Positions 18,769-61,013 of a stretch of 64,000 nucleotides of DNA are shown here, in pieces (positions within the stretch are counted from its first letter, which is position 1; each line of letters starts with the position of its first letter). This stretch comes from a virus, in the IMG/VR virus record IMGVR_UViG_3300025133_000032, one strand, 5' to 3'. The position numbers and the translations under genes are program-made. Below the pieces are notes generated by a model, which was not told the DNA's origin, ran no database searches, and worked only from the letters and a program-made list of their open reading frames with translations.

Positions 18769-19023
18769 ATGACGTCACTTCGTGTTTGCTTATTGGAAAC
18801 TCCAGAAATCTCTATCAAACATCTCATGCATCTGGACACTGGAGTGTTTATACATTATGCTATTTCATTCCCCAAAACAGAAGGCTTTTATGTCTACAAA
18901 ATCTCACCTTATATTTCTAAAAAAATAGAGACAGCGTATAGAAGACATAAATCAATCGGCAAAAAAGCTGTAGCAATTAAGAAAAATGCTCAGGGTGAAC
19001 CTTTTAAAGTTAAATCACTTTAA
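18769..19023 (+). CDS. Hypothetical protein (84 aa)
   Basis: ATG at 18769 lies 4 nt after ATATTTAT. The track's TTG start at 18721 is less likely. Confidence 0.5.
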   Translation: MTSLRVCLLETPEISIKHLMHLDTGVFIHYAISFPKTEGFYVYKISPYISKKIETAYRRHKSIGKKAVAIKKNAQGEPFKVKSL

Positions 19024-19131
19024 ATCTACAATAGTAGCTTCCGTTAGAAGCTGCGAAATAAAGTTCCGAAGAGTACCCGCAGCAAGCTGGTTTGAAATGG
19101 CGGCGCGGACATCTTTGACCCTAACAAGCAT
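19015..19131 (-). pseudogene. 38-aa N-terminal remnant of the WCTA/repeat paralog family
   Basis: MLVRVKDVRAAISNQLAAGTLRNFISQLLTEATIVDLK* aligns with the N-termini at 30492, 58887 and 61013. Confidence 0.75.
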
Positions 19132-19145
19132 TTTATTTCAAAATC

Positions 19146-19547
19146 TTAAGCGTTGACGCCAGATAATCTTTCTCTTGGCTTTTGTGGTACTTTTTTACCC
19201 TGCACGATTGGAATAACTTTTCCCTCACTTTCTTGTTTTTGTAATACAGCTAATAGTTTTCTAGATGACCATTCCAGATCGCTGTGTCTTTTTCCCCTAC
19301 CTTTAAGCACGACTGTATTTACATCATACTGGCGTATAAACTTTCTCCAATCATCCCGCTTCCATTTCTTTGAATCATCAACAAGCCCGATTCCATGGAC
19401 GGGATCAATAATACGCTGGACACCAGTTTCATCAAAAACTACATGGACTGTATCATGTGATTTAGGAGCTGGGGCATCTTGCGTCATGGCACGCATGTCC
19501 ATAGCTTCGCTTATTAAAGACCTTAATTGGCTAAATTTAATTTTCAT
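19146..19547 (-). CDS. Putative internal head protein (leader MKIKFSQLRSLISE)
   Basis: Shared N-terminal leader motif. Confidence 0.55.
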   Translation of the reverse strand: MKIKFSQLRSLISEAMDMRAMTQDAPAPKSHDTVHVVFDETGVQRIIDPVHGIGLVDDSKKWKRDDWRKFIRQYDVNTVVLKGRGKRHSDLEWSSRKLLAVLQKQESEGKVIPIVQGKKVPQKPRERLSGVNA

Positions 19548-20455
19548 TTGTTATCACCCAGGCGGTTATTTTTGATTATCTCTTGTGCCATCTCGAGGTG
19601 TCTTTGGACCTCAACTCTGCGAGCCATTGGGACAAGCCCTACAAGCTTTTTTACACGTTCTAACTCAGTTTCGATAGATCTCATTTTCCGTATAGCATTA
19701 CCATCAGGTTTCTTTGGTGTTAGATAGTCTTCATTCATCTCACGAATTAATGTTTTAAGTTCACCATAAGTAATTTTTGCCACAGACTCACTTTTAAGTG
19801 ACGGTACAGCGGATAATATTTTCGCGACATCACTCATCATATTTTTATCTAATGCAACCATGAGCACTTTTTTCAATGTTTTCTTATATCTAGGATCTGA
19901 TTTCGCTTTTGCAATTAAAGGCGGAATAATCTTTCGCAACTCTGCATGAGGTAAGTCGCCCCATGTCGGTTCTTTCATACTTCTTGCTTTATCTGACAAA
20001 GCAACATCACCACGAGCTGAGGGTCGCCCGGTCATCTGCACGTCATTCGCAACAGCATGAACTGAAGCGCCAGGGTTATCTGGACCGCTGGCAGTTCTAT
20101 ACCTTTGTGCTCCAGTTTGGATCTCTTTCCCACGTTGCGCAGGAGACATCCAGACTAACTCTTTCTGTTGAGCATGATGCAAGTTACCGTACTCCCACCA
20201 GTCAAGAGGCTTTGGTTTGCGAAGTTGCCCAAAAACAAGTTTCTCAGGGACGTTTGTCCAGATTTTTGTAGGCCTATTTGAATCATAAACAAACAGCAGG
20301 AACATCCCATGTGTTTGAAATGTTCCATGATTAACATCATCGCCCAGTCGCCCGTAAGCAATTGCCTTCAGCCGTTTAACTTCCTCATGCGGAATATTAC
20401 TTGTCGTTCCAGCTTCATTTATTATGTGTTTAATTTCACCGATGGTCAATTTCAT
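19544..20455 (-). CDS. Putative internal head protein (leader MKLTIGEIKHIINE, internal copy KITYGELKTLIREMNE)
   Basis: Leader motif present twice. Confidence 0.55.
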   Translation of the reverse strand: MKLTIGEIKHIINEAGTTSNIPHEEVKRLKAIAYGRLGDDVNHGTFQTHGMFLLFVYDSNRPTKIWTNVPEKLVFGQLRKPKPLDWWEYGNLHHAQQKELVWMSPAQRGKEIQTGAQRYRTASGPDNPGASVHAVANDVQMTGRPSARGDVALSDKARSMKEPTWGDLPHAELRKIIPPLIAKAKSDPRYKKTLKKVLMVALDKNMMSDVAKILSAVPSLKSESVAKITYGELKTLIREMNEDYLTPKKPDGNAIRKMRSIETELERVKKLVGLVPMARRVEVQRHLEMAQEIIKNNRLGDNK

Positions 20456-20585: not shown

Positions 20586-20590
20586 TGTGT

Positions 20591-23500
20591 TTATGCATCT
20601 GAGCCGGCATTTGACACGACGAAGTCAACGCTAATGACTTCAGCAACTCTTGTGGGTTCGACGAATATCTTACCCCTGATAGTGTTATTTTCAATATCAG
20701 CCTGAGTTGTTGTTGTAGTATCAATTATAACTTTGAAACGTGCTACACCTTGTTGCTCTTGAATTCTCTGTAAGACAGGGTTAACAAGACTAGAGAACCG
20801 GTTTAGTGTTGATTCTCTATTAGGCTCAAAAATAATTTGATTTGAAATTGAACGTACTTGACGTCTGATTTCAATCATAAGTCTTCTGACATTTACTCTA
20901 TCAACTGCAGATTGTGCAGCATGCAAAGTTTTTTGCCCAAATACAACAACCCCATCACTCCCAGGGAATGAAACAAGCGGGTTGATACTAGCGTCTTGTA
21001 GTGTATCCATATTAGAACGATTCAATAATAACGAAGCATTATCCGTAGTTTGAAGTGCTCCTCTAACGAATCCTGCTGGAGCATTCCATGGGAATCCTAC
21101 AGAGTCATTCAAAGAGAATGCTCCCAATACTGCAACAGACGGCGGTACTTGCGTTGGCAAATTCGTGAATGGGTTATTAATAACCACATCTGGGAAATAT
21201 GCTGCAGCAAAGCTGCTATCCAAACCTCGGCCGTTAAACTGCGTCGCAGTATTTGTGACATGAACGTTTTGCACAGATGCTGTAACAACGGCATTGATTT
21301 CATCACGCTCTTCTACATCCATGATATACAGAGCATCGAATCTATCATTTTCGACTGTATCAACACCAGCATCGGATACGACTGAATGTCTAATTCCGGG
21401 AATCGCAAGAAGCTTGATATCGACGTCAGTCGTATCACCCATTATCTGCAGTCCCTTTCTATACGACTTCACAGTTGAACCGTTATTTAGATGTCTTGCT
21501 GAATCATCCATTTCTTGCTTCACAGCAATATTGGTTAGCTCATTAGACTCTTTATCGAATATATTCGTTCCATCATAACCACCCTGGACAAAGAAGTTGA
21601 ACTTAGCGATCGTTCTAACAGTTAAATCTCCGAAGTCTGTAGCAACGCTTAACGCTCTCGTCTTGTTCGCAGCATTGGCGCTGATTTGACCATTTCTTAC
21701 ATACGACATGCTTGCAAGTTCTTTTGCATCAACTATACCGTTCGATGCTGTTCTAACCTGGATTCTGTCTAGTGAGAAAATGTTATTATTATATAAATCA
21801 CTATCTAAAACAGTTCCATTAGAGTTAGCAACACCTGCGTTTTCCCCGACCTGGACATTTCTCAATGATGTCTGGAAATTTGGGAAATACTTAGTCAAAC
21901 TTCTGATTGTCTTATTCTCAACTTTCGATGAGTTAGGCTCCGTAAGTGATGTTTTTTGTGTAAACTGGACTCCCCAATAAAGTGACTTATTGACAATGAC
22001 CTTTGGATCAATTCCTTGTGCAATATTATCTCTAAATGGGATTGGTAATTCGACGACCCTCTTTAAGCCTTCGTTGCCATAGTCAGTCAAGCCTGCAGAA
22101 GCAGCAGTAGAACCACTAATTGCCGTTAGAGGATCAGAGCCTGAGGTTATTAAGTGTGCAGGCCCTCTAAAGCCAATGGGTAATGATGTAGGGCTTATCT
22201 CTTCGTCGTCAACCCTTTGATCAATCGCAACCCTAATTAGATTTGAAACATTAGGATATTTGCCTTCAACAACAAGCTTTTGGCCAGATGAATTTTTGTC
22301 AAAATCATAATATGCATTCAAATCGCCAATCCGGCGCCCGATATAGTTTTGTGATGTAGGATCAAGGTTAAGCCCGGAAAAGCTTTCCAAGATTACACGG
22401 TTCTCATCAGTATCACCGAACCTTCTTACAAGAAGGTCAAACGTACCGAATTGGTCATCATTAACGTTTGACTTTGCAATATTCTGAATTGATATCTTAT
22501 ATTTCTCGTTAGACTCGCGGCCATCCGACAGCATAAAGACTCTAAACAGATTTATTGGGTTTCCACCAAACTTTTGTGAAATTACTGTAGGCGATGAAGG
22601 AGTCGAATACCTATCTTCAAAGTTTTCGTAATTTGGTGCTGTAGTTGCGCCAGTATTTCTAGGTGCAGAGCCTGTAAGCAAAAATGCTACTGGCTCTTTT
22701 GATGCAGCCGAAGCAGCATAGTTACCAGCAGCGATGACTCCAGTACCCGTTACTGCAGCATATGATGGATGAATATCATAGTGTGAGTAAAGATAATGGC
22801 CAGCAACCTCAATCTTCGTAGGGTCTTGGTTTAATACATTACCGAGGTAATTAGGTGCAGTCTGATCAAACGATGCTGTTATAACATTCGGATATGATGC
22901 ATCATTTCCCTTATGACCATTAAGCAATAATACAAAGTTTTGATTTCCGCCTAATAAATCAACAGAGCCCGTCATAGCCCCATTTGGTCCTGCAGACGTT
23001 GCGACCTGCGCGACAGCAGGGGCTCCAGATGGAGACACTGAGGATGAAAGCATTGGTACAACACCAGATGCTGCCATCACTATACCCCTAACAATCGGGA
23101 CTGCGACAGCAACAGTTGCAGTTCTGTGTGCAATACCTGCATCAGAGAAAATGGATGAACCATTTGACTCAGACATGTATGTTCCCAAAATGTGCATTCT
23201 GCCTTTTGGACCAGTGCTATTTGCGTATGCGTTATCACCGAGGTTACCATTAGCTCCCGGAATCTGTTGCCCGACAACAAACCCAGCACCTTCTACGCTA
23301 CCAAGATTATTTCCAGTTGTAAGCCTCTTTTCTCCGCGACCTGCGCCAAGAACTCTTAAGAAGGTTACAGCCCGAGCATTACGTAACCATTCAGCTACAG
23401 CAATCGGCCCGAACTTTGTTCCATCAGAACCGCCGAATTTAACAACGAAATCCGGAAGTGATCCAACAGTAACTGGAACGAACGCAGGACCACGCTCTGC

Positions 23501-23608
23501 GGCACCAATAACACCGGCAGGAACGCCTACAGGCGTTACATTTTGCGGACCGGTTAAATCTATTTCTCTGACGCTTACGCCAGGTGATCTTCCACTAAGT
23601 TCGACCAT
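20591..23608 (-). CDS. Tail sheath protein (T4 gp18-like), copy B
   Basis: SPGVSVREIDL, GPAFVP, PWNAPAGFVRG, FGQKTL...DRVNVRRLMI and RGKIFVEPTR motifs. Confidence 0.93.
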   Translation of the reverse strand: MVELSGRSPGVSVREIDLTGPQNVTPVGVPAGVIGAAERGPAFVPVTVGSLPDFVVKFGGSDGTKFGPIAVAEWLRNARAVTFLRVLGAGRGEKRLTTGNNLGSVEGAGFVVGQQIPGANGNLGDNAYANSTGPKGRMHILGTYMSESNGSSIFSDAGIAHRTATVAVAVPIVRGIVMAASGVVPMLSSSVSPSGAPAVAQVATSAGPNGAMTGSVDLLGGNQNFVLLLNGHKGNDASYPNVITASFDQTAPNYLGNVLNQDPTKIEVAGHYLYSHYDIHPSYAAVTGTGVIAAGNYAASAASKEPVAFLLTGSAPRNTGATTAPNYENFEDRYSTPSSPTVISQKFGGNPINLFRVFMLSDGRESNEKYKISIQNIAKSNVNDDQFGTFDLLVRRFGDTDENRVILESFSGLNLDPTSQNYIGRRIGDLNAYYDFDKNSSGQKLVVEGKYPNVSNLIRVAIDQRVDDEEISPTSLPIGFRGPAHLITSGSDPLTAISGSTAASAGLTDYGNEGLKRVVELPIPFRDNIAQGIDPKVIVNKSLYWGVQFTQKTSLTEPNSSKVENKTIRSLTKYFPNFQTSLRNVQVGENAGVANSNGTVLDSDLYNNNIFSLDRIQVRTASNGIVDAKELASMSYVRNGQISANAANKTRALSVATDFGDLTVRTIAKFNFFVQGGYDGTNIFDKESNELTNIAVKQEMDDSARHLNNGSTVKSYRKGLQIMGDTTDVDIKLLAIPGIRHSVVSDAGVDTVENDRFDALYIMDVEERDEINAVVTASVQNVHVTNTATQFNGRGLDSSFAAAYFPDVVINNPFTNLPTQVPPSVAVLGAFSLNDSVGFPWNAPAGFVRGALQTTDNASLLLNRSNMDTLQDASINPLVSFPGSDGVVVFGQKTLHAAQSAVDRVNVRRLMIEIRRQVRSISNQIIFEPNRESTLNRFSSLVNPVLQRIQEQQGVARFKVIIDTTTTTQADIENNTIRGKIFVEPTRVAEVISVDFVVSNAGSDA

Positions 23609-23645: not shown

Positions 23646-26600
23646 TTACTCTGCGAAACTTACGCCCGCGTTCGTTATAATAAAATCAATCGCAACAAAC
23701 TCTACAGTTCTGGTTGGTACCAGTTCAATACGCCCATTAAGTTTATTATTCTCAATGTCATCCTGCGTATTGTTAGTTTCGTTCATAACAACTTTGAATT
23801 TCTCTATTCCTGCCTGCATTTGTACAAGAGCTAGCCTAGGTGTAATTTGATTTACCCAGCGTGCCCTTGTTTGAGGCGTGTTCTGTTCAAATACGAATCC
23901 TGCTCTCGAAATATCAGAAACTATTCTCTTTACTTCAAGTAACATTCTTCTAACATTCACTCTATCAAGTGCCGACTTTGCTTGCTGCATTGTCTTTTGC
24001 CCAAATATTACGAATGTGGGCGAAGTTCCCTGTCTAGGGAAGTTTGCGATAGGATTAATATTTGACTCTTGTAATCTATCTCGATCACCTTTATTCAATC
24101 GTACATCAGTATTCGAAACAAAATCAAGAGCACCACGATTGAATCCAGCTGGAGCAAACCATGGGAATCCGACCTTATCATTATACGCCAACGCCCCAAG
24201 CGCAGCTACTGAAGGCGGTACTTTTACCTTTTTGCTTGTCACACTATCTGTAATTACGACATCTGGGAAATACGCAGAAACATAGTTATTATCAAGTGCA
24301 CGAGTATCAAGTTGTTCTGATGTTTTCTCTACATCAGGTTTAGTACTATCAGTATCAAATAATCTTGTAGTGTTCTCGTCGTATCCAACAAGGTCTTGTA
24401 AATAAATGGCGAGACCATACTCTTTGATTCTAGTTGCAGCATGATCTGTGATAAAGGAATCCCTTATTCCTGGAATCGCAAGGATATTTGTGTTAACAGT
24501 TAGTTCATCTGTCATAATCCTTGATGCTGCACGATATGAGAATACTGTATTGTTTTCTTGACCAGCCCCCGCGATATTAGTCGTTAAACCAGGTGACGTG
24601 TAAGCAGAATTTGCGCCTCCACCTGTATCACTAGATGATGCTTTATCATTTAATCTTGATGCATCAACATCTAATATATTAACGCCATCATAGCCGCCAG
24701 CCATAAAGTTAGTAAACTTTGTGAAACTAGAGAACTTATTAAACTCTGCTGATGACGTTAGGTTTACCAATGTACCAAGCGTAACCCTGTTAACGGCTAG
24801 GCTATCAACCACTCTGTAATCATTAGGGTTTGGACTTCCGTTTCTAATGTATGCAGTTTCACGCATATGCTCTGCTGCAGACGCTGTAACAGCAGCAACA
24901 GATGTGTTACTAAGTGCGACCTTCGCTAGCGAAAATTTGTTATTGCAAAAAGTATCTGCGCTTGATCCAGTAACCAATGCATCGAGCTTCGAAATTCCCA
25001 AGAACTTCGAGTATGACTTGACTAATGGGTTAATTACTGAAGATACATTTGGGTTTAGGATAGCATCTGTGATTGAACCTGTAGCAGGTACTTTCGTAAA
25101 CTTAACTCCCCAATATAATCTAGAGTCGACGATTTCTGCAGCACCTGGTTGTCCAACAAAACTTGATGCCGTAGTCGTTATTCCCTTTGTTACCTTAAAT
25201 GTATGAGGAACTGGGGGAACAATAGATGATGTACCAAATAACGCCCCGATTCCAACGCCGGTCAATCTACGTGATACGCTTGTATCAGCAGCTGTATCAA
25301 CCAGCATATCATTAGTATTTAATAAAGACTGTCCCCTAAACCCAAATGGAAGTGCTGTTGCAGGAATATATCTTTTTTCTATGTCTGGATTAATTACAAT
25401 TCTAACCAACGCAGACTTATTAGGGAATCTTCCTGTCACTCTTACGCGACGTTCATCTTCTCTATCAGTGTCGAAAACAAACTCTGCCTTCATATCACCG
25501 ATAACGGCAGCGACATAATTCTCGCTGCTTGGGTCCAATGAACATACTGGATATTGTTCTAAAATTTCTGGCTTAAGGTCAGTGTCATTAAATGATCTTA
25601 CCTGTACTGCGAATGTTCCATATTCATTTGCTGGATCAACAGATTTTCTAACATTTGCAATTGAAATCTTGTACTTATCATTTGCAAATTTTCCATCAGA
25701 AATTGACTCAAAGCTAAATAAGTCATATTCTTTCGTTCCATATGGTTGCGAAATAAAATCAGTCGTTGAGGGTGTTTGGAACCTTGTATCAAACCTACCG
25801 TATACATCTCTGAATGTTTCTGATGTATCACCTGACGTCGATGATGTGTTTGTTGTTCCTGATAGAACCATAACAGAGCCAGTCGTAGCAGACACTGGTG
25901 CTAATTCGTCTTCAACACCGAAGTCAGCGTATAACAAATGCTCTTCAGTATTGAACTTTGTAGGGTCGGTATTTAATATCTTCCCAATATAGTTGTCGCT
26001 TGTAGGATTAAATGATGCAGTAAGTACCCTAATAGCTGTTAAGCCATCAGATGTTGCATAATTTGGTGTCGAAGACGAAATAACAAGCTTAAACATCCCG
26101 TCCATTTCGCCAGCTGCAGCCAATGTAGCAACATCATCATGATCAGATATACTGGGTACAACTTCCTGAGCGCCATCAAGGACCATCATTCTTGTTCCAG
26201 ATGCGACCATAATCATAGCACGGATAAGGTTGACGTCAGTTAACCCGAATGAGTCATTATCAGTAAATACTGGATAACCAAACGCCTCATTCGCTCGTGG
26301 CGTATGTCGAGCAGCTAAGAACATCGTCCCGCCATTATCTCTAGCCCATACATCTTTACCTGCCGATGCTGCTAGCGAAAAGCCAGCATTTTTTACTGTG
26401 CCCTGTGTTCTAGTTACTTCGATATCAGTGACAGTATCATTTGCACCTGCTCCCAATACTCTCGTGTATGTAACCGCAGACCTGTGCTTTAAAAACTCAT
26501 TTACTGCGTAGGGCCCAAACCTCTTTGAGTTCATTTGCCCAAACTTCGATTTAAAGTCTGGAATTGAACCCACTGTAACTGGGACAAATGCTGGACCCTT

Positions 26601-26720
26601 TTCTGCTGTACCAATGATACCTGCAGGAGTCCCTAGTGGCGCCTGTTGGCGCTGTGTTAAATCGATTTCTCTTTCAAAAAACCCCGGTGATCTAAAAGTC
26701 TGCTCTGGCATATTATACAA
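23646..26720 (-). CDS. Tail sheath protein (T4 gp18-like), copy A
   Basis: SPGFFEREIDL, PWFAPAGFNRG and FGQKTMQ...LDRVNVRRMLL motifs. Confidence 0.93.
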   Translation of the reverse strand: MYNMPEQTFRSPGFFEREIDLTQRQQAPLGTPAGIIGTAEKGPAFVPVTVGSIPDFKSKFGQMNSKRFGPYAVNEFLKHRSAVTYTRVLGAGANDTVTDIEVTRTQGTVKNAGFSLAASAGKDVWARDNGGTMFLAARHTPRANEAFGYPVFTDNDSFGLTDVNLIRAMIMVASGTRMMVLDGAQEVVPSISDHDDVATLAAAGEMDGMFKLVISSSTPNYATSDGLTAIRVLTASFNPTSDNYIGKILNTDPTKFNTEEHLLYADFGVEDELAPVSATTGSVMVLSGTTNTSSTSGDTSETFRDVYGRFDTRFQTPSTTDFISQPYGTKEYDLFSFESISDGKFANDKYKISIANVRKSVDPANEYGTFAVQVRSFNDTDLKPEILEQYPVCSLDPSSENYVAAVIGDMKAEFVFDTDREDERRVRVTGRFPNKSALVRIVINPDIEKRYIPATALPFGFRGQSLLNTNDMLVDTAADTSVSRRLTGVGIGALFGTSSIVPPVPHTFKVTKGITTTASSFVGQPGAAEIVDSRLYWGVKFTKVPATGSITDAILNPNVSSVINPLVKSYSKFLGISKLDALVTGSSADTFCNNKFSLAKVALSNTSVAAVTASAAEHMRETAYIRNGSPNPNDYRVVDSLAVNRVTLGTLVNLTSSAEFNKFSSFTKFTNFMAGGYDGVNILDVDASRLNDKASSSDTGGGANSAYTSPGLTTNIAGAGQENNTVFSYRAASRIMTDELTVNTNILAIPGIRDSFITDHAATRIKEYGLAIYLQDLVGYDENTTRLFDTDSTKPDVEKTSEQLDTRALDNNYVSAYFPDVVITDSVTSKKVKVPPSVAALGALAYNDKVGFPWFAPAGFNRGALDFVSNTDVRLNKGDRDRLQESNINPIANFPRQGTSPTFVIFGQKTMQQAKSALDRVNVRRMLLEVKRIVSDISRAGFVFEQNTPQTRARWVNQITPRLALVQMQAGIEKFKVVMNETNNTQDDIENNKLNGRIELVPTRTVEFVAIDFIITNAGVSFAE

Positions 26721-28753: not shown

Positions 28754-30492
28754 TTATAGCAAATTTTCGCTTGTGACCATAAAATTCTTTTCTAAATTAT
28801 ATTTTGCCCATCCTCTAATCATTGCATGCTTATCATTTGCAAGAGCTGCCACAATCTCTTTGGGTGTGTGTCTATTAAATGCCACAGAAATTCTTACGTT
28901 AACTGATCTATCTTTTGCAAGAGCAGCAAAATATCCAGGCTCCAGGGATTTACTTTTAGCTATCTCTGACCTTACTGCTGCTGCCCTGTCCTTCATTAGA
29001 ACTTTTAAAGTTTTAAGAGAGATGCTATTATTCGATGCCAAAGCAATTCTTACTTCTTTAGATTTGTCATTTACAAGAAGGTCTAAAATATGAGGTGCTA
29101 TACTCGGGCTACCCGCGACACTCTGTCTTACTTTTGTACTTTCGTCATTCATCAAAAGCTTCAAAGTTTCCTTCGGGGTATTAGGGTTACTTGGTAAGTA
29201 GCTCCTTACAACTTCACTTTCATCATCTACAAGAAGTTTTAAAGCTCCAGGTGGTGTATTGTCATTATTGCTTATTGCGCCCCTTACGCGCCAATCTTCA
29301 TCTTTTGCAAGGTTCATTAGGATTTTGGGTGATATCTTCTTACTACGAGCTACCATTCCCCTTATTTCTGCGTCTGTATCATTCATTAGGTTGCCTAAGG
29401 TCTCTGGTGAGGTATAGCGATTAAGTGCTACTGCAAATCTTACCTCTCTATCTTCATCTTTTGCAAGGCGCTCTAAAACTTCTGTATGTTTATTTTGCTT
29501 TATGGCTGCGGCCCTGCGGTCACTAGGATCAGCACTCTTTGACATTTTTATTGCTTGCACACTCGAGTATTCATTAATATATTCTTGAACATCATTAGAT
29601 AAGTGAAGAGCATGTCGGTGGCCAATCGCATTAAGTAAAGCGAAATATGCTGGTGGTCTAAGGCCATTAGTGAGCTTTTTAAACCTAGGAACCGACGAAA
29701 CAGCTCTTTTGACGTCTGCTAGCGCTGGATGTTCCCCTATTTTTCTTGAGTGACTTTCAATTGCAGTAAGAATACTTTTTTCCTCTACTTTAAAGACTTT
29801 CTTAAAATTAAATGTTCCGTTGTTCATATTAACAGTAATGCCGCCATATCCTGGGCCTTGAACTTTCCCCTGTATTGTTCCAATTGACCACTTTCTTTTC
29901 TTGTTGTTCTTGTCGAAAACATAATAAAGAATTATGTTACCTGCAAGAACATAACTATAGAATAAATTTTCGCCTTTAGTTATTGCAGTGCACCATGTTG
30001 TGCCGCGCCCAAGCGCGCACGAAGCATCCAAACTTCTTGGCATCAGAACAACAAAATTTTCTGATTCATAAACTTTGTCAGCATCGCCAGATGCTACTTC
30101 AAAGTTTATCTTAGAATCATCCGGAAGCTCTTCAAGCTTCCGGTGCAAGTCACCAGCTGTTTTGTAACCGTTGATGTCAGCATCTCTTCCTTTTAATTTT
30201 TGGCGACTCTTTGCAGAATCAAAAGAAATGACCAAGGGAGTAATGTCTCTTAAAGGTTCTTGATTTGAACGTGAAACACGTTCAAGCCATTGAAGGTATT
30301 GTTTTAGCTTAGCTTGAGGTAGAACTTGAAGTTTTTCGAAAACTTCATCCCATTCTTCTGGAGAGCGATTTGACTTTGCTTTAATGTCATCAATGCAGCT
30401 TCAGTTAGAAGCTGCGAAACGAAACTTCGAAGATTATTTTCTGCAAGCTGATTTGAGATAACTTTTCGAAGTTCTTTGACTTTGATTAGCAT
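28754..30492 (-). pseudogene. WCTA (PcfJ-like) domain plus 26-aa LRV/HEAT-like repeat protein, copy 1, split by a 1-nt deletion near 30394
   Basis: Track ORFs 30304..30492 and 28754..30235 join if one base is restored (GCT GC- ATT GAT versus GGT GCG ATT GAT in the paralog). Confidence 0.8.
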
Positions 30493-30622
30493 ATAGTATT
30501 AAATATGTAGCCAAAATCATTTTGCACCAGATATCAATCAAGTTCTATAAATGTAGGATTTCCTGTGCCGACTGATTGAAATTGAATGCTTGACATTATT
30601 TGTCCTTCTTGAGTTTAACTGA

Positions 30623-35609: not shown

Positions 35610-35909
35610 CTAGATTCCTTTGCAAAGGAATTTGACGTTAGCCAATAGTGTAGTATGAAAAGAGGCAACTGTAGCATAAACTTTACCTTTTAAGAGAAGA
35701 TACAGATTATATTCATCACTTCCATTACTGTGTATATACCCTATAATGATGAAGTAATCAGACGCGAGGAAGTACGGGCAGGTCCACCCGGTCACCTGCC
35801 GACTATCAGACAAGGCAGCTAAACGGCAGTATGTTACTAGATTAACCAGCGAACCTAATGGATATAAGCGTTTTAAATGCTCTAAGCTATTAATATAGTC
35901 GGTGGACAT
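35610..35909 (-). CDS. Small paralog array member
   Basis: LEHLKRLYPLGSLV. Confidence 0.65.
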   Translation of the reverse strand: MSTDYINSLEHLKRLYPLGSLVNLVTYCRLAALSDSRQVTGWTCPYFLASDYFIIIGYIHSNGSDEYNLYLLLKGKVYATVASFHTTLLANVKFLCKGI

Positions 35910-35942
35910 TACACTATTACCTCAAATGGGGTAGACATTATT

Positions 35943-45504: not shown

Positions 45505-45507
45505 ATT

Positions 45508-46149
45508 TTACTCGTCGAAGGTTAGGATGCTCTCTGCAGCACTTAAAATTCTGCCACTTTTTTCTGGCGATTCCTGAAGTGGTTTGTTTCCTATTACATT
45601 TCCATGGCGATCATAAATGACCTTACCTTCACTCATCATAAATGCACCAGGTGTCGAAGGTTCTGCAACCATATCCCAACAAATCAACTGGAAATCATCA
45701 TTTACTAATTGGTGGTCTCCCTTATCAGATGTCGAGCCAACGCCTCTTGATGAAATTCCGACCTTGATTCCAGATGTAATTAGTCCTTCAAGAATTTTAC
45801 CCATAGGCGTCGAAGTAAGTACTTCGATTTCACCCATAACGACGTCACCTTCTAGAACAGCGCTAGTAACTACATGTGATACCTTTTGTAGCTCTACTAC
45901 AGATGTCGATGGATGGTCTAATTCACCTAGTGCCCGTCTTTCATTAATAAATTTCTGGTAATTTCGTACTTCACGCTCCAATATAGCATGTGGGTAGATT
46001 CTACCATTCTGGTTTAATGTTTCAGCTTTTTGCAGAACACCTTTCAAAATTATCTTGCCGCCATTTCTATCACGCGATTCACGGATAGAATCTGCAGTAT
46101 ATGAAAATGGAGCCCATTCTTGAAGTAATTTGACTGGCACTTTACTCAC
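45508..46149 (-). CDS. Prohead maturation protease (T4 gp21-like)
   Basis: NQNGRIYP, ALGELDHP, VSH, GISSRGVGS and WDMVAEPSTPGA motifs. Confidence 0.93.
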   Translation of the reverse strand: MSKVPVKLLQEWAPFSYTADSIRESRDRNGGKIILKGVLQKAETLNQNGRIYPHAILEREVRNYQKFINERRALGELDHPSTSVVELQKVSHVVTSAVLEGDVVMGEIEVLTSTPMGKILEGLITSGIKVGISSRGVGSTSDKGDHQLVNDDFQLICWDMVAEPSTPGAFMMSEGKVIYDRHGNVIGNKPLQESPEKSGRILSAAESILTFDE

Positions 46150-46996: not shown

Positions 46997-49900
46997 TTAT
47001 GAATCAGACTCGTTTTCGAAATCACTTAAGTCAATTTCGAAAATCGGATCGTTAATTACAATGTCATCTACATTAAGATACTCTGTTAACATTTCCCGTG
47101 GCATTTTCATTTCTTTCTTAATACTATCTATATGCTTGCCAAGTGAAGTTAAAATAACTCTCATTTCATATGACATATTTGATGTCTTATTTTCTGCAAG
47201 AAGCAAAGAGTCATCGTTTAAAATTGCATCAGAGAGTGAACCACTAAATGGACTACCACGAAAAAACTTTAAATCGTTAGGATCACCATCAGGCTTTACT
47301 ATAGAACTAAAATCTGGCATGTGCGTTTTTGTGGGACCGTGTGTTCTGCGACGCTTCCTATTATAACCATATCTCGATAGTTGATCAGATTGCTTCACAG
47401 ACTTTTTGCGCTTCCTAGGTTTATCATCATCTTCACTTCCATCATCCATTAGCGCTTGGTGAAGTGAGATATCCTCATCGTCGTTTGGATCATCATCAGA
47501 AACGATTAATCTCTTTCCGTGATCTTCGCCTGCGAATAAGTCTTCTTCTCCAGCGCCAGAATCTCCGCTATCGTCGTCAATGTCAAGGTCTTCGCCACCG
47601 CCCCCGTCATCACCCGCTAGACCATCTGGAAGATCGCCGTCGCCGTCTTCACCTTCATATCCGCCACCGAGCCCGCCGCCGCCAAGAGCGCCGCCACCCC
47701 CTCCGCCCATGGGTGAATTATCCTCAAGTTCTTCTGACTCAAGTTTTAAGTCAAGCACTCTATCTTTGAATCTGCCCTTCTCAATCAGCTCAATCTCGTC
47801 ATCTGATAAGCTTAATACTTCTTTTTGGATATATGATCTGTCAAGAAGGCCTTCTGGAATTGAACCTGCAATTTCGAATTTAGTTCTAAATAACTCTAAT
47901 TTTTGTTGCTGGGCGACCGTAGAGGGGTTCGATAGCATTAGCGAAAAATCTGATAGATCTTCGCCCTCATATCCATGTGTATATAGATGGATTTGAGCTA
48001 TCTTCTCCAATTCTGAAATTAGGACGCGTTGAATCTTACTAATTGTTCTACTAAACCTGATGTCTTCCTGTGCAAGTGTTGCCTTACTGGATAAACTCTC
48101 GTCATACCCCAAATATGCTTTGGGAACTTTTAGAGCAGAAAACAGCTTTCTTTGAATGTACTCTACATCAGCGATGTCAGATACGTGTTGTCCACCAGCC
48201 AAAGTATCAATCTTCGTTCCAGTTTCGCCACCACGAACAGGGATGAAGTAATCTTCGTCCACAGACAATGGGTTATACCTAAGATCAACCCTACCCGATG
48301 ATTTATCGACGACTTGAGACCTTTTTAGCTTAGTTTGGGCGGCTTCCATGTAGTTAGGAATATCCTCAGTAGGTACCGTTCCGACATCAATGTAAAAAAC
48401 ACGCCTTTCTGGTGATCTGACAACCCTATAAACAAGCATTGCATCTTCAATAAGGATTAATTGCCGCCAAATCCTTCTTGCACTTTCTAAGACGGACGAC
48501 CCATATGGCAAGAAGGCATCATTACCGACCATTCTGAAATGTGATACCTGCCAGGCGTCAAGTATTTGGTTACCTTGTGTAACCCACCTAAATCTTACAG
48601 CAAGGGGCTCTTCTGGATCATACCCTTCCTCACGCTCGACTTCATTTACAGGCATGGGAAACACATTGACTACACCAAGCTCAGGGTGTACATCATTGAA
48701 TAAGAACATATCACCATATTTGCAAAGATTTCTAGTCCAGGCTGTCAGGTTATGGTCAACATTAATAATATCAAGAAATAACTCATCAAGAAGCTGCTTT
48801 ATTTTAGGGTTCTCAGAAAAAATGTGGAGTGATGAATCCTTCTCATTTACGGCAGTCGTTTCCTCAGAAAAGATGTCAAGTGCACTACAAATCTCAGGTG
48901 TATTATGCGAAATGACCGTATCAGTGGCGAAATTCTTATACCCGTCAACAGTCAAGTCATACAGGGGAATTTCTCCATAATACTCTACAGAAACAACTTT
49001 ATGATTTGCGTAATTTTCTCTAAAATCAGTAAAGTTTTTGTAACCGTTGTTTTTTAGCCTGTTTTTAACTTTAGCAGCCGTTGTATCTAGTTTTTCACAA
49101 AGAAGTGACAACTGCATGCCATCTTCGTATGTGTCACAAACAGACTGGAATGTTAACGATGAATCGTAGCGTGGGTTTTTACTTCCCTTATTATCCCATG
49201 AGTTATTTTTCCACCCAGGTGAGTAGGCTGCAGCAAACGTTTCGAAATTCTTAAAACCATTTTTTCGCAATCTTCGCTTGATTACGTTCGGGTCAGTATC
49301 AAGCTTGCTGCATAAAGAATAAAGATTAAACTCAGAATTTTCGCATATTTCTAAAATTTTTCCGAAAGTGATGTCTCGTCTTTCAGCAGGATTATTCTCC
49401 TTCATAAATTTAGAATGATTAGCTTTAAATTTGTTTATCCACTCTTGATTATCAGGTGACCACTTGTGCCCATTTAAAATCTTACGATGGTAGCGATTAT
49501 GTTCGTCTGCCGTCATTATCTGTAGATTTTCTGGGTTATTATCAAATTTCGTGAAATTCTTATGATGAACAACTTCGCCCTCTTTAAGTTGTCTGTTTGA
49601 TGCCCACTCTGCTACTACTTTATGTTCACGCTGCCAACCATTCGCGATAGTATATATAAATCTATAATCGGTACCAGAATCTGTGCCTTTCCCTTCGCCA
49701 TACCATGATTTACGATAAAATGGCATCATCGAATCGCCGGCACTTAAACCGTCAATTCTACAAAACGTACCGTCACGTTTCATTAATCTATGATTTGCTG
49801 TCCCTATTATTTCCTTGCCACTATTAAATGTAACTTTCCAAGCATGATCAAATCTTGTCTGTCTAGCATGTTTTCCGAGAGCCGGTACGATACTTTTTTT

Positions 49901-51397
49901 CTCATGATCGTAAGCATAGACATAAAAAGTATCATCAGCGCTATACTCTTCAGATAATTGTTTTATCGTTTTATACCCATCTAGTGTAGCTATCTGTGTA
50001 TCGCCCGCCAAACAATATTCCATTTCAGCGAAATCTGCGTACCGTGAGTTATGGCAAACTATTGAATTTGTTGCAAAATTCTCATGCCCGTCGACAGTCA
50101 TATCGTAAACCGGAATTTTTTTCCAAGGAGTAACAGAGACAACTTTATGATTTCTAAAATTATCTTTCTTAAATTGCTTCCATTTTAAATCTTTTTTATC
50201 AAGAAATCGTGTAAGTGTTGCGCCGCTAATATTTAGTTGATCTGATATTTTTAAGACTGTTGGTTTATCGATTCTCTTTCCAGTTTCAACTATTAAATCA
50301 ATTGTTAATTTAGCAGTTTCACTTTTTCTTGATCGGCCTTTCCAGTATTCTGCAAAATTTCTTGAAGATTTTATTCTACCCTCAGCCCATGCGTGCTTTA
50401 TTGTTTTTGAATGTTTATTTTTATTTTCTTCTACTTTATACCAATCGCTACGTGTTTTCGCACCCTTTGCAACACTCTCAGGATTATGCGATGGATTATT
50501 ATTTAACCAATGATTTCGGCGCATTTCACGAATTTTTGGTTGGCGATTAACATTAGCGACACCGGCTCGTCGAGAGCCATCATCTTCATCCCAAGCTTGC
50601 TGGATCCCTGCAATCATTTTTTCGCGATGGTCGATCCATTGTTGCTTTGTATCTTGGGCATGTAACTTTAGGTGCTCTTTAGCATCCATAATTAACAAGT
50701 TGTCTGGAGTGTTATTCTCAGAATCATAATCAATATGATGAATATGTTCCTCGCCTTTCTTTACTTTTCTTTTTGTGCTCCACTCTGCAATTAATTTATG
50801 CTCAGATATCCACCCATTCCAACCAGATGGATCCATTGTATAAATGTTTTTATAACCGGTGAATTGTTTACCATCTTTTGATGTTCCATTAAACTGCTTA
50901 CGATAGAAAGGCATCATTGAGTCACCAGCTTTTAAACTGCCAGCGTCTTGATACTCCCCGCTACGTGTCATACAAGGATGATCAGGCGTACATATAAGCT
51001 CTGTGTCATCGTCAAATTTAATTTTTACAGTGTCTTTTATACCTGACTGTCTTGGATGATGCGCGTAAGCTGGAACTATCTGTTTTTTCTCATGATCATA
51101 TGAATAAACAATAAACTTTTCATCTTTAGGATATCGCTTAGCTAATTCTGCAATCGACACAAATCCCTCTTTTCCAGGAACTGGTATAAGTGTATGTCCC
51201 GCTAGACACTGTCGATCATATTGCCCATATGCATTTAATGCATTACTATATACTTGGCTGTATGATTTTTTAAATGCGGTTACCGCACTCGTTGCAGTTG
51301 GTTGTCTAAAAGAACGAACTTTTTTCTTTAATACCGGGCCGCCACGAAAAAGTTGCGTTAGCCTTTTGAATAAATCATCTCGTCGATTTTCTGCCAT
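46997..51397 (-). CDS. Portal protein (T4 gp20-like) containing two inteins
   Basis: RNLCKYGD, IEDAMLVYRVVRSPERRVFYIDVG, EDYFIPVRG and TLAGG motifs; about 708 aa after splicing. Confidence 0.93.
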   Translation of the reverse strand: MAENRRDDLFKRLTQLFRGGPVLKKKVRSFRQPTATSAVTAFKKSYSQVYSNALNAYGQYDRQCLAGHTLIPVPGKEGFVSIAELAKRYPKDEKFIVYSYDHEKKQIVPAYAHHPRQSGIKDTVKIKFDDDTELICTPDHPCMTRSGEYQDAGSLKAGDSMMPFYRKQFNGTSKDGKQFTGYKNIYTMDPSGWNGWISEHKLIAEWSTKRKVKKGEEHIHHIDYDSENNTPDNLLIMDAKEHLKLHAQDTKQQWIDHREKMIAGIQQAWDEDDGSRRAGVANVNRQPKIREMRRNHWLNNNPSHNPESVAKGAKTRSDWYKVEENKNKHSKTIKHAWAEGRIKSSRNFAEYWKGRSRKSETAKLTIDLIVETGKRIDKPTVLKISDQLNISGATLTRFLDKKDLKWKQFKKDNFRNHKVVSVTPWKKIPVYDMTVDGHENFATNSIVCHNSRYADFAEMEYCLAGDTQIATLDGYKTIKQLSEEYSADDTFYVYAYDHEKKSIVPALGKHARQTRFDHAWKVTFNSGKEIIGTANHRLMKRDGTFCRIDGLSAGDSMMPFYRKSWYGEGKGTDSGTDYRFIYTIANGWQREHKVVAEWASNRQLKEGEVVHHKNFTKFDNNPENLQIMTADEHNRYHRKILNGHKWSPDNQEWINKFKANHSKFMKENNPAERRDITFGKILEICENSEFNLYSLCSKLDTDPNVIKRRLRKNGFKNFETFAAAYSPGWKNNSWDNKGSKNPRYDSSLTFQSVCDTYEDGMQLSLLCEKLDTTAAKVKNRLKNNGYKNFTDFRENYANHKVVSVEYYGEIPLYDLTVDGYKNFATDTVISHNTPEICSALDIFSEETTAVNEKDSSLHIFSENPKIKQLLDELFLDIINVDHNLTAWTRNLCKYGDMFLFNDVHPELGVVNVFPMPVNEVEREEGYDPEEPLAVRFRWVTQGNQILDAWQVSHFRMVGNDAFLPYGSSVLESARRIWRQLILIEDAMLVYRVVRSPERRVFYIDVGTVPTEDIPNYMEAAQTKLKRSQVVDKSSGRVDLRYNPLSVDEDYFIPVRGGETGTKIDTLAGGQHVSDIADVEYIQRKLFSALKVPKAYLGYDESLSSKATLAQEDIRFSRTISKIQRVLISELEKIAQIHLYTHGYEGEDLSDFSLMLSNPSTVAQQQKLELFRTKFEIAGSIPEGLLDRSYIQKEVLSLSDDEIELIEKGRFKDRVLDLKLESEELEDNSPMGGGGGGALGGGGLGGGYEGEDGDGDLPDGLAGDDGGGGEDLDIDDDSGDSGAGEEDLFAGEDHGKRLIVSDDDPNDDEDISLHQALMDDGSEDDDKPRKRKKSVKQSDQLSRYGYNRKRRRTHGPTKTHMPDFSSIVKPDGDPNDLKFFRGSPFSGSLSDAILNDDSLLLAENKTSNMSYEMRVILTSLGKHIDSIKKEMKMPREMLTEYLNVDDIVINDPIFEIDLSDFENESDS
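48902..50014 (-). mobile_element. Intein 2 in portal (371 aa, HNH endonuclease)
   Basis: Starts CLAGDT; block B GTANHR; VVHHKNFTKFDNNPENL; ends LYDLTVDGYKNFATDTVISHN/T. Confidence 0.9.
50048..51208 (-). mobile_element. Intein 1 in portal (387 aa, HNH endonuclease)
   Basis: Starts CLAGHT; block B CTPDHP; HIHHIDYDSENNTPDNL; ends VYDMTVDGHENFATNSIVCHN/S. Confidence 0.9.
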
Positions 51398-57267: not shown

Positions 57268-58887
57268 TCAGGCACGTGAGGCGGCCCACTTGACATCTAT
57301 GTCTTCATCTTTCAAAAGTGCGAACAGAACATCATCTGGTGTGTTTTTATTGAGTCCTACACATGTCTTAACTGAACTATTGGGATCTTTCGCAAGTACC
57401 CTTAATATATCAGGTGATATATTGGGGTTATTCGCTAAACCCCACCTAACTCCTGCGGCTTTATCTTTTATAAGAGCTTTTAAGACATCACCCGGCGTGC
57501 GGTGGTTCATCGCCACCGCACGCCGGACATTTGCACCTGGGTCTTTTGAAAGTTCTCTTAAAGTCTCAGGGGGCATATTATTGGACGCAGCATTTTGCCT
57601 TGTCTGGTGATCGTTATCTTTTGCAAGCTCTTCCAGGGAGTCGGGAGGTGTATTTGGGTTTGATGCTATACCACGTTTAGTCTGTTTATCTTTACTTTTC
57701 ACAAGTTCTCTCAAAGTATCAACTGGTATATTTGGGTTAAGTAATGTATTGTACCGTGTAGTTTCATCAGGATCTTTCGCAAGCTCTTTTAAGGAATCAA
57801 CTGGTGTATTTGGGTTTGATGCTGCGCAATGCCTAACCGTTGCATCTTTATCTTTTGCAAGTTCTCTCAAAGTATCAACGTGTACGCTTGTATTATAAGC
57901 TACATCTTGTCGAATGCGGACATCTTTGCTTTTTGACATTTTTGAATAGTGGTGGTTATTTAAAACAATAATATAATCTTGAACGTCTTTTGTTGGCTTT
58001 AAGCCAGCAATATTCTTGAATTGATTTGTAGTTGCGACGAATGCGGGTGGTCTTAAGCCCTGAGCGAATTTTTTAAATCTTGGAACTGACGTTACTGCTT
58101 TCTTGATATCTCTTATTGCTGGGTGGACGTCATCGATTGCACGGCTCATTTCGATAGCCGCATGTATCTTGGGCCATTCATCACCAAAAGCTTCCTGGAA
58201 ATCAAACTGTTGATTATTTTGGTTAACAGTCATTTCATTCGGGTGTGATGGTTGTACCTCACCGCCGATTGTTCCGATTGACCACTTCTTATTTTCGTCA
58301 TGTTTATCAAGAACATAATAAAGTGATGTTGTACCTTCTAAAATATAGCTATAAAATAGATTCTCGCCCTTTGTTCTTGCAGTGCACCATGTTGTGCCCT
58401 TTCCGATTGCACAAGAAGCCTGGATGCTTCTTGGCATCAGAACAATAAAGTTGTCTGACTCATAAACTTTGTCAGCATCGCCAGATGCTGCCTTGAAGTC
58501 TATCTTAGAGTCATCAGGAAGCTCTTCAAGCTTCCTGTGTAAATCACCGGCCGTTCTATAACTATTAATGTCTGCGTCTTTTCCCTTTAGCTTCTGTCTG
58601 CTTTTGGCGCCATCAAAAGAAATAATGAGGGGCGAAATGTCTCTTAAAGGTTCTTGATTTGAACGTGAAACACGTTCAAGCCACATAAGATATTGTCTTA
58701 GTTTGGCTTGAGGTAGAGCTTGAAGTTTTTCTAAAACTTCATCCCACTCTTCTGGAGACCTGTTAGATTTTGCTTTGACATCATCAATCGCACCTTCTGA
58801 GAGTAATTGTCTGGCTAGGTCTTTTATGCGGGCCTCTACCAGCTGATTTGAAATTATTTCCCGGAGTTCTCTAATCGTGATGAGCAT
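57268..58887 (-). CDS. WCTA (PcfJ-like) domain plus 26-aa LRV/HEAT-like repeat protein, copy 2
   Basis: Leader, ASCAIGKGTTWCTA, about nine NPNTP..L.ELAKD....VR repeats. Confidence 0.8.
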   Translation of the reverse strand: MLITIRELREIISNQLVEARIKDLARQLLSEGAIDDVKAKSNRSPEEWDEVLEKLQALPQAKLRQYLMWLERVSRSNQEPLRDISPLIISFDGAKSRQKLKGKDADINSYRTAGDLHRKLEELPDDSKIDFKAASGDADKVYESDNFIVLMPRSIQASCAIGKGTTWCTARTKGENLFYSYILEGTTSLYYVLDKHDENKKWSIGTIGGEVQPSHPNEMTVNQNNQQFDFQEAFGDEWPKIHAAIEMSRAIDDVHPAIRDIKKAVTSVPRFKKFAQGLRPPAFVATTNQFKNIAGLKPTKDVQDYIIVLNNHHYSKMSKSKDVRIRQDVAYNTSVHVDTLRELAKDKDATVRHCAASNPNTPVDSLKELAKDPDETTRYNTLLNPNIPVDTLRELVKSKDKQTKRGIASNPNTPPDSLEELAKDNDHQTRQNAASNNMPPETLRELSKDPGANVRRAVAMNHRTPGDVLKALIKDKAAGVRWGLANNPNISPDILRVLAKDPNSSVKTCVGLNKNTPDDVLFALLKDEDIDVKWAASRA

Positions 58888-58916
58888 ATACGATAACTAT
58901 TGCACACACACACGAA

Positions 58917-59492
58917 TTATGCAGGATCACCCAGCCCTAGATTGCAAGCCTCAGCAATAACGTAAGCATCAACTTTATCCAAACAATATGGCTGAACTTT
59001 CTTATTCCTATTCAGCTCCCAAACTTCATGCTTAAAAACTGAGTTGGAAAGATATTCAAACGTCTGCTCTTTTTGATTCTTACCTCCAGCTTTCTTCTTT
59101 GATAGTAATGGAATACCAATTGCTTTACGTGCCGCTGTTGCGTCTATATAGATTGGGTCAATTAAAAACAGTTCACGTGCAAAATATGATACCATGATGT
59201 TAAATTTTGCAAGCAAAGCAATCGTGTTCGCAGATGACATACCACGTCTGAATTTCTTTACTGGATCTTCTATCGCTAGTTTCGTTATTGAGAAGTTGTA
59301 TAAATCAATGTCATACTTTAGAGCTTTTAATGATTCTTTCGTGATGTCAACTTTACCCCAGAAACCAGATTTAACTTTTCTAAGGTCGATATAACCCATT
59401 TTAGCCGGATACGATAGAAGCAGATTCGATTCTTCTAATATAGACCATCCGATTACGCTTGTGCTAACATCTAACGCCAGTATATAGCTCAT
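58917..59492 (-). CDS. RuvC-like Holliday junction resolvase
   Basis: ILALDVSTSVIGW, AIED and DKVDAYVIA acidic motifs. Confidence 0.8.
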   Translation of the reverse strand: MSYILALDVSTSVIGWSILEESNLLLSYPAKMGYIDLRKVKSGFWGKVDITKESLKALKYDIDLYNFSITKLAIEDPVKKFRRGMSSANTIALLAKFNIMVSYFARELFLIDPIYIDATAARKAIGIPLLSKKKAGGKNQKEQTFEYLSNSVFKHEVWELNRNKKVQPYCLDKVDAYVIAEACNLGLGDPA

Positions 59493-59549
59493 GCATAATA
59501 ATACACATAGGTTTGCTGGATGGTAAATTACCTGTGTATGTCTTTGCTG

Positions 59550-61013
59550 CTAATAATTATTGTCTGCAGCAAATTTCACAGAATCATTTTTATCTTTTCT
59601 AAGCATAACAACAATTTCATCTGGTGTCGAGAGATTTTCGGCGACGTTGCGCCTGACACCTGCGTTACTACTCTTTGCTAAAATTTCGTAAATGTCAAAT
59701 CCGAGGGCCGGTCGGCGTGATAGTGCGGAGGTAACAAATGGAATATCATTTGTCGCAAGTATCTTAAAAACTTCATGCGAAGCATTTTTATTATTTAAGA
59801 CAGCATACTGGATCGATTGGTTGGGACGTTTGGCAAGCATGGTGATTGTTTTCGGATCTGTAACAGTCATTGCAGCTTGAGCTAGAAGATCTTTATCATC
59901 GCCGTCTATAAATGTCATTAATACTTGCTCGGGTGTCGAAGGGTTACGAGCAACGCCGCGACGCACAAACCAGTTATCATCAGAAGCCAATGTAGCAAGA
60001 AGCTCTGGAGGTGTGCGAGAACTATGAGATGCTTCTTCTCGCACACCCTCATTTTCGCTTGTTGTCATCTTTGTTAAAGCCGGTATTATAATTTCGTTGG
60101 TATAATCACTAACTTCACCAGATAATTTATTACCTGCTGATTCTAATGAACTCAATAAAGCTAAAATTGCTGGGACTCGCATGCCTTTAACGAGCTTTTT
60201 AAATCTTGAGACTGACGTTACTGCTTTCTTGATATCTTTTATTGCTGGGTGCTCTTTTACTTTTTTTGAATGCAGTGTAATAGCATTTATAATGTCTTCT
60301 TCTTCTTCTTCGAACTCAAAACTAAAATCAAAATCATCGTTATCTTCGTCAACTGTTACAGAACCATACTCAGGCTCTTGTACTTCGCCATTGACTGCCC
60401 CAATTGACCACTTTCTTTTTTTATCATGCTTGTCAAGAACATAATAAAGAATGACGCCATCATTTATTATGTAATTGTAAAATAAGTTCTCACCTTTGGT
60501 CCTTGCTGTGCACCATGCCGTGCCGCGCCCAAGCGCGCACGAAGCATCAAGGCTTCGGGGCATCAAAACAACAAAATTGTCTGATTCATAAACTTTGTCA
60601 GCATCGCCAGATGCTGCCTTGAAATCTATCTTAGAATCATCAGGAAGCTCTTCAAGCTTCCGATGAAGATCCCCAGGGGTCTTATAGGCGTTAATATCTG
60701 TGTCTTTTCCCTTTAACTTCTGCCTGCTTTTAGCTTTGTCGAAAGAAATGATTAAAGGTGAAATATCTCTTAGGGGCTCTTGATTTGAACGTGAAACACG
60801 TTCAAGCCACGTGAGGTATTGTTTTAGTTTAGCTTGGGGGAGGATTTGAAGTTTCTCGAAAACTTCATCCCATTCTTCAGAATGTCTATCAGATCTTGCT
60901 TTAATGTCATCAATGGTGCCTTCTGTAAGAAGGCAATTTATTAGCTCTTTCAAGCTAGTTTCTACCAGCTGATTTGAAATTGCTTCCCGAAGTTCTCTAA
61001 TCGTGATGAGCAT
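59550..61013 (-). CDS. WCTA (PcfJ-like) domain plus LRV/HEAT-like repeat protein, copy 3
   Basis: Leader, ASCALGRGTAWCTA, C-terminal VRRGVARNPSTP-type repeats. Confidence 0.8.
   Translation of the reverse strand: MLITIRELREAISNQLVETSLKELINCLLTEGTIDDIKARSDRHSEEWDEVFEKLQILPQAKLKQYLTWLERVSRSNQEPLRDISPLIISFDKAKSRQKLKGKDTDINAYKTPGDLHRKLEELPDDSKIDFKAASGDADKVYESDNFVVLMPRSLDASCALGRGTAWCTARTKGENLFYNYIINDGVILYYVLDKHDKKRKWSIGAVNGEVQEPEYGSVTVDEDNDDFDFSFEFEEEEEDIINAITLHSKKVKEHPAIKDIKKAVTSVSRFKKLVKGMRVPAILALLSSLESAGNKLSGEVSDYTNEIIIPALTKMTTSENEGVREEASHSSRTPPELLATLASDDNWFVRRGVARNPSTPEQVLMTFIDGDDKDLLAQAAMTVTDPKTITMLAKRPNQSIQYAVLNNKNASHEVFKILATNDIPFVTSALSRRPALGFDIYEILAKSSNAGVRRNVAENLSTPDEIVVMLRKDKNDSVKFAADNNY

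Follow-up and report, generated by a model that had tools for sequence, protein, structure and literature searches.

Of the weapons of a phage, the proteins carried in its capsid and delivered along with the DNA are the first to arrive in the host. To our knowledge, few families of such proteins are known beyond IPI and Alt of phage T4 and Dar of phage P1. In T4 the prohead protease gp21 cleaves at L/I-x-E, and in the T4 record both IPII and IPIII start with MKTYQEFIAE/A (here and below a slash marks the end of the leader). Here we describe a family of paralogous genes in a 64,000-nucleotide stretch of viral DNA, IMG/VR record IMGVR_UViG_3300025133_000032 (the window), the source of which is an uncultured marine T4-like giant phage. 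The encoded proteins consist of an N-terminal leader, a conserved head domain and a variable C-terminal tail of 26-residue repeats. New in this analysis are the T4-style leader on the family and the sharing of this leader with non-homologous neighbouring genes. From sequence features and from analogy with the T4 internal proteins and Alt, we give about an even chance to the reading that the family comprises late-made proteins which are packaged in the phage head and delivered together with the DNA.

Products of the window include a gp23-type capsid protein (PF07068, E 3e-75), a T4-type portal, a tube protein and a large terminase, and all its genes lie on the minus strand, as do all window features given below. 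A 308,593-bp contig from ENA, possibly from the same or an overlapping sample, is 99.986% identical to the window over the shared part. The first-pass annotation of the window, made from the letters alone, listed a four-copy family, and its four elements are all real and homologous. Two of them, c57k (57268..58887, 539 residues) and c59k (59550..61013, 487 residues, differing in one residue from its orthologue on the ENA contig), are intact open reading frames (ORFs), a third, c28k (28754..30492), is frameshifted, and the fourth is a leader-only stub of 38 residues (19015..19131) between the sheath and tube genes. The count of four applies to the window; the ENA contig adds three further copies, one of which lacks an ATG and has its leader readable upstream in frame, so that the genome holds six long copies and one stub, with three of the seven decayed. 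The neighbouring genes are as first described, comprising the tail tube gene (PHROG E 8e-30), the resolvase gene (E 5e-6) and, beside c28k, one weak head-tail adaptor match.

The architecture of a conserved head followed by a variable repeat tail is likewise confirmed. In c57k a leader (residues 1-31) is followed by a helical bundle (~45-122), a PcfJ-like α/β core (~125-270), a linker and eight regular LRV repeats. Between copies the heads are 68-72% identical in protein and 73-80% in DNA, and this similarity, earlier put at the N-terminal ~200 residues, extends over ~270 residues. It begins at the ATG, and the DNA similarity ends at the ORF borders, with neither shared flanks nor target-site repeats found. 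The tails match the Pfam LRV (leucine-rich repeat variant) profile PF01816 with E-values of 5.7e-31 (c57k), 9.6e-12 and 2.5e-22 in the three long window copies (gathering cut-off 21.6 bits). Autocorrelation of the tail reaches 0.37 at a lag of 26 residues and does not exceed 0.12 at other lags, in agreement with the repeat length first noted. The repeats also differ in number as noted: a repeat hidden Markov model (HMM) finds eight units of 26 residues in c57k (57292..57915, residues 325-532), while c28k has at least eight recognisable units and the degenerate tail of c59k at least four; of the six long copies, one has 8 units, one at least 8, two at least 4, one about 4 and one 2. A literature search on leucine-rich repeat variants in phages returned no paper, and charge and isoelectric point of heads and tails show no consistent trend.

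The decayed copies document a turnover of the birth-and-death type, as the first-pass annotation had proposed, with a frameshifted copy, a copy without ATG and a stub. That annotation treated c28k as one gene; a homologous element is present, but it is divided over two frames by a 1-nucleotide deletion at about codon 33. The leader lies in an ORF of 62 residues (30304-30492) and the remainder in the -1 frame, which is open from 30397 and has its first usable start, a TTG, at 30235; a 493-residue ORF is called likewise on the near-identical ENA contig. A programmed frameshift was considered and rejected, the slippery heptamer being absent. The dN of the c28k head is similar to that of the intact copies, and c28k is probably a recent pseudogene. 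The stub matches an HMM of the family leaders, its own included, at E 1.4e-11, whereas no non-family sequence of the window scores better than E 0.5 with the same model. Its DNA is 78% identical to that of c28k over 63 nucleotides, no family similarity is found downstream of it, and we regard it, on sequence grounds, as the relic of a former copy. Between the stub and the tube gene lies a gap of ~370 nucleotides (18648-19014) that contains no recognisable gene, and in which neither family similarity nor an Rfam match was found; an Rfam scan of the whole window gave no match either.

In head comparisons between copies by the Nei-Gojobori method, dS is 1.1-2.5 and dN ~0.2, corresponding to dN/dS values of 0.08-0.17. 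The head is thus under purifying selection. For the tails, the other half of the head-versus-repeat comparison suggested in the first pass, dN is 0.4-1.2 with saturated dS, which lends no support to the diversifying selection on them that had been proposed. Since the head dS between copies exceeds 1, the copies are old rather than recently expanding by this sequence measure, and the earlier description of the family as 'expanding' is not supported. c57k and c59k also share patches in which their DNA is 88-96% identical, a pattern suggestive of short gene-conversion tracts. One further candidate sequence, P0010, resembles a variant of c57k in which the first 13 residues are like those of other paralogues; it comes from a 1.3-kb contig and was left out of the analysis as a possible assembly chimera.

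The head domain (~270 residues) has no match in Pfam, and beyond LRV/HEAT the PHROGs matches of the family proteins are limited to two families of unknown function; neither database shows a nuclease or recombinase domain in them. An exhaustive HMMER search nevertheless yields 3,267 cluster representatives that match the head at E≤1e-3, 469 of them at E≤1e-10. The homologues examined further are viral, and neighbours in a structure atlas are 91-100% viral. A blastn search of the paralogue pair against cultured phages gave no match, and an IMG/VR scan with the head alignment no confirmed relative. In homologues the head is fused to LRV/HEAT, ankyrin, pentapeptide, WG or DUF4116 repeats, and some homologues carry two to five head units (1,000-3,300 residues), at least one of these being verified as a true single ORF. 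The PcfJ-like core of c57k (58078..58515) contains the motif MPRSxxASCxxGxGTxWCTAxTKxxNxF. Among 68 homologues G162, W167 and C168 are invariant, and C159, K201, N176, Y181 and D106 are conserved in at least 90%. In confident AlphaFold2 models, whose pLDDT (predicted local distance difference test) is 91 over the entire head and 90 over the core, a helical bundle and an α/β core follow a long N-terminal helix. The cysteines match no known active-site geometry or family, which leaves the catalytic role once suggested for them without support.

The evidence for delivery with the capsid starts from the leader. Leader statistics were derived from 109 N-terminal copies, drawn from the paralogues and the 150 best representatives. 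The position immediately ahead of the conserved domain, E31 in c57k, is Glu in 103 of these 109, position P3 is L/I/F/V in 103 as well, with a hydrophobic residue there in 105, and P1′ is G/D/A/S, mostly Gly, in 95; the median leader length is 17 residues. The leader of c57k (58795..58887; residues 1-31, MLITIRELRE...LLSE/G) contains three L-x-E motifs and is a candidate capsid-targeting propeptide. The leader motifs of the window copies are LRE, LVE and LL[ST]E; residues 8-10 read L-R-E in the intact window copies, and LRK and VRA in two decayed ones.

Leaders of this kind are also found on genes outside the family. On a related contig, L007, four tandem family genes start with MRAREFI[TV]..., one of them reading MRAREFIVE, and non-family neighbours start with MKSYEFIIE and MRAWEFISE. 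The latter neighbour is an ADP-ribosyltransferase of the ART-PolyVal class (PF18760, E 1e-22), a class that has been predicted to be capsid-delivered (PMC5512222). Salicola phage SCTP-2 has a leader of its own, MK[VI][KRT]H...[FY]E, which is shared by three family genes (34, 37 and 40) and two genes from outside the family (33 and 36); in gene 37 it is found at a Met inside the annotated ORF. Because the L007 and SCTP-2 leaders are each common to family and non-family genes, the leader varies by phage and not by protein family. In the window itself two non-family genes of 133 and 303 residues beside the stub (19146..20455), neither with a Pfam or PHROG match, carry 14-residue leaders, MKIKFSQLRSLISE/A and MKLTIGEIKHIINE/A, that end in I-x-E/A; a regular expression written post hoc for leaders of this type matches gene starts only.

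The window also encodes a gp21-type prohead protease (Peptidase_S77, PF03420, E 1.2e-25; 45508..46149), which is proposed to be the leader-removing enzyme; an S77 protease is present in phages PA5oct and SCTP-2 too. The family includes PA5oct gp205 (HMM E 2e-33), which has the leader MKLFEVFTLYE/D and is annotated as 'structural protein, ESI-MS/MS', that is, as detected by electrospray tandem mass spectrometry (PMC7318152). In addition, a promoter-like motif, ATA[N]TTA, precedes c57k (ATAGTTA, 58894..58900) and c28k (ATATTTA, 30500-30506) at 13-14 nucleotides, 13 in the case of the c57k ATG, and is found ahead of the protease, sheath and tube genes as well. Of its 40 occurrences in the window, 19 lie in the 60 nucleotides before a gene start, where 2.2 would be expected; the stub has no such motif upstream. 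Several genes, family copies among them, have the motif 10-14 nucleotides before the start codon and no Shine-Dalgarno sequence, a spacing that suggests very short or absent mRNA leaders.

Taken together with the T4 precedent, these features would fit the following course of events. The amphipathic N-terminal leader, ending in L-x-E before a conserved Gly, would direct the protein to the scaffolding core of the prohead, where the gp21-type protease of the window would remove it. After injection the mature protein, consisting of the helical bundle, the PcfJ-like Cys-bearing α/β domain, possibly with enzymatic activity, and the LRV solenoid, would act early in infection, and the solenoid of each paralogue may bind a different host partner. 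The combination of a conserved PcfJ-like head and a variable solenoid suggests host-directed effectors, a design with which the difference in dN between head and tails, the fusion of the head to several repeat types, the PcfJ-like domains in retroelement targets and the genes beside one paralogue (Gad2, unconfirmed) and beside pCF10 PcfJ (AcrIIA9 family), described below, would also agree. The first-pass annotation had spoken of injected effectors; what speaks for this is circumstantial, namely the L-x-E leaders, the gp21-type protease, the leader of the ART-PolyVal neighbour and the mass-spectrometry label in PA5oct.

Several observations weigh against packaging and delivery. Phage CcrBL9 has a homologue of the family and no S77 match, and other homologues occur in metagenome bins labelled Marseillevirus. 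One intact copy, c59k, has no exact match to the promoter motif. The mass-spectrometry label in PA5oct is soft, because the 93 virion-linked products of this phage include enzymes unrelated to the virion (PMC7318152) and because gene 0207, which bears the same label, has an N-terminus that by eye resembles T4 gp32. With an HMM built from family leaders only, the match of the window leader to non-family proteins is not significant (E 2). The pattern [LI]xE[AGS] is modestly enriched at N-termini: it occurs there in 13 of 57 genes, where ~10% would be expected, and family copies account for four of the 13. Finally, the L-x-E motif could be part of the fold, since the leader helix in the AlphaFold2 model runs without interruption into the first helix of the fold (residues 5-40, pLDDT 75-81) and internal head units of multi-unit proteins keep L-x-E in 30 of 38 cases.

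The last two features are central to the alternative that survives best, according to which the proteins remain unpackaged in the cytoplasm, with the head as an enzyme or binding module, the solenoid as an adaptor to host or phage partners and L-x-E as an element of the fold. Several copies are interspersed with genes for recombination and replication (SbcCD, resolvase, primase and pieces of DnaE), in agreement with such a role, and the CcrBL9 homologue fits it too. A cytoplasmic protein would, however, not be expected to share phage-specific leaders with non-homologous neighbours, ART-PolyVal included, nor to have a leader that nearly matches that of the T4 internal proteins; the virion-associated label of the PA5oct homologue and the structural-gene promoter motif ahead of two copies argue in the same direction. 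We consider this alternative unlikely, while still giving it appreciable weight.

A role as true structural or decoration proteins of the virion, in the neck, at the head surface or in an inner body, with the LRV solenoids as building elements, is less easily reconciled with the family. In its favour, the homologue in PA5oct bears a structural annotation, c28k and the stub are located inside the neck/sheath/tube block, and phiKZ-like phages have paralogous families of inner-body proteins that are processed by a protease. A structural role nevertheless fits poorly, because copies decay while others persist, copy and repeat numbers vary freely, and repeat types are swapped wholesale among homologues, and we judge it improbable. 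That the copies are a selfish gene family spreading between conserved genes, like free-standing homing endonuclease genes, is very improbable: although they are scattered over junctions between conserved T4-like core genes, in a genome with many selfish elements (two apparent HNH inteins in the portal gene and two homing-endonuclease paralogues) and with signs of gene conversion between c57k and c59k, Pfam and PHROGs show no nuclease or recombinase domain in them, their similarity stops at the ORF borders, and their dS argues against recent spread.

The similarity of the head to PcfJ, noted in the first pass, holds as a distant likeness but not as formal membership. In a Foldseek search against the BFVD viral models, family members come first, and ranks 25-48 are rich in PcfJ-like proteins of phages, of which there are at least 14 (E 2e-3 to 0.1, probability 0.75-0.99). 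An hhalign comparison of the head with a PcfJ profile gives E 0.029 and a probability of 1.7% over 50 columns, superposing Pro...Gly...[W/H]-Cys with Cys on Cys; the profile is shallow (effective number of sequences 2.4), as the PcfJ seed from plasmid pCF10 gathered almost only near-identical Enterococcus sequences. The nearest named clusters by language-model features have PF14284 in 26-33% of their members, with scores of 0.86-0.88. The PF14284 HMM itself gives no match at E≤1 in the three long window copies or the PA5oct homologue, none at E≤0.001 among the 68 homologues and none in six-frame scans of PA5oct and SCTP-2, whereas pCF10 PcfJ, the positive control, scores E 1e-43. This is weak evidence, from models and sequence profiles, for the head being a distant relative of the PcfJ superfamily rather than a formal member. 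Literature searches found no function for PcfJ, the term mostly matching the pCFJ plasmids of C. elegans. A survey reports that in some targets of diversity-generating retroelements a PcfJ-like domain is located upstream of the variable region (PMC5758913). In pCF10 (L012, 15874-17984) the PcfJ gene directly adjoins one with the annotation of an AcrIIA9-family Cas9 inhibitor, an adjacency that hints at an anti-defence neighbourhood for PcfJ.

More tentatively, the head may define a very large, unannotated and apparently phage-specific family of capsid-delivered modular effectors, in which a PcfJ-related, Cys-bearing module is combined with interchangeable target-binding solenoids. In this wider proposal, which goes further than we can hold with confidence, the T4-type leader would co-evolve with the protease and scaffold of each phage, and some members would be polyproteins of two to five units that are cut by the prohead protease at the L-x-E before each unit. 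Should the reading of the family as capsid-delivered proteins hold, a short, recognisable leader together with an S77 protease would make head cargo predictable from the sequences of uncultured T4-like and jumbo phages, a role would emerge for thousands of repeat proteins now called 'hypothetical', and the PcfJ domain, so far uncharacterised, would be placed in a functional context on mobile elements. Because its members combine one conserved head with different solenoids, the paralogue set forms a natural panel for finding host targets.

The surrounding genome shows several other features. The portal gene (46997-51397, 1,466 residues) has two HNH-type insertions before the T4-type portal domain, and Intein_splicing is listed twice among its precomputed Pfam matches; the insertions look like two HNH inteins within one gene. 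Two adjoining tail-sheath paralogues of ~1,000 residues each occupy 20591-23608 and 23646-26720. Two paralogous genes resembling homing endonucleases (PHROG 3339/559, with a weak Mom-like match) follow the tube gene (16456-18090) and the capsid gene (37769-39211), respectively. Small genes in succession at 35610-37403 resemble one another in their N-terminal motifs (LEHFKRLFPLG, ELEKEFPIGSLISP) and look like a further tandem paralogue family. The primase (61126-61644/61753-62184) is matched over its Toprim half only (172 residues), and a 143-residue ORF preceding it may supply the N-terminal part, in which case the primase would be split. At the ends of the ENA contig a DnaE-type polymerase is present in at least three separate ORFs (PHP+alpha, finger and HHH_6; L005 12670-14853, L001 537-1499 and 6557-7612), with many small ORFs between them, and the family copies P0008 and P0007 flank this split gene within a few kb, one on each side. 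The gene adjoining P0008 (L005 11422-12465) has a precomputed match to PF26128 (Gad2), which we take to be an anti-Gabija family; the match is unconfirmed, as the local Pfam copy gave none.

Compared with known folds and systems, the head has a distant likeness to the PcfJ-like domains (PF14284): its predicted core fold resembles theirs, the order strand, Pro, helix, Gly, aromatic/His-Cys and strand ending in Lys/Arg appears to be common to both, and the occurrence in phages and mobile elements is a further likeness. The family differs in having WCTA where PcfJ has HCVG, a second conserved Cys, an additional N-terminal four-helix bundle and the leader. Scores against the GNAT acetyltransferase fold are within chance topological likeness, the head lacks the second half of that fold, and no acetyl-CoA motif was seen in it by eye, no motif scan having been made. 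The tail agrees with the LRV protein of Azotobacter vinelandii (PF01816) and with HEAT-like solenoids in its strong profile match and in its period, which equals the 26-residue length of the profile. Unlike the A. vinelandii protein, the family has no Fe-S domain, and its array forms the variable C-terminal part of a phage protein, with other repeats in its place in homologues.

The polyvalent proteins and polymorphic effectors described by Iyer et al. in 2017 (PMC5512222), a study that does not mention this head domain, PcfJ or LRV, are similarly modular and predicted to be co-delivered with DNA; the ART-PolyVal neighbour and the multi-unit fusions add to the resemblance. The variable part of the present family, in contrast, is a binding solenoid and not a set of enzymes. 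From IPI, IPII, IPIII and Alt of T4 the family differs in its mature parts, which are unrelated in sequence and fold, and in its much larger (450-540 residues), modular proteins with a repeat solenoid. The leader in this phage is also longer (31 residues with three L-x-E), and packaging and cleavage are here inferred from the genes. What the two systems share is a short N-terminal leader ending in hydrophobic-x-Glu (MRAREFIVE in the family, MKTYQEFIAE in T4), a gp21-type protease in a T4-like setting with a gp23 capsid and T4-type portal, and, in a related contig, an ADP-ribosyltransferase that carries the leader type of the family.

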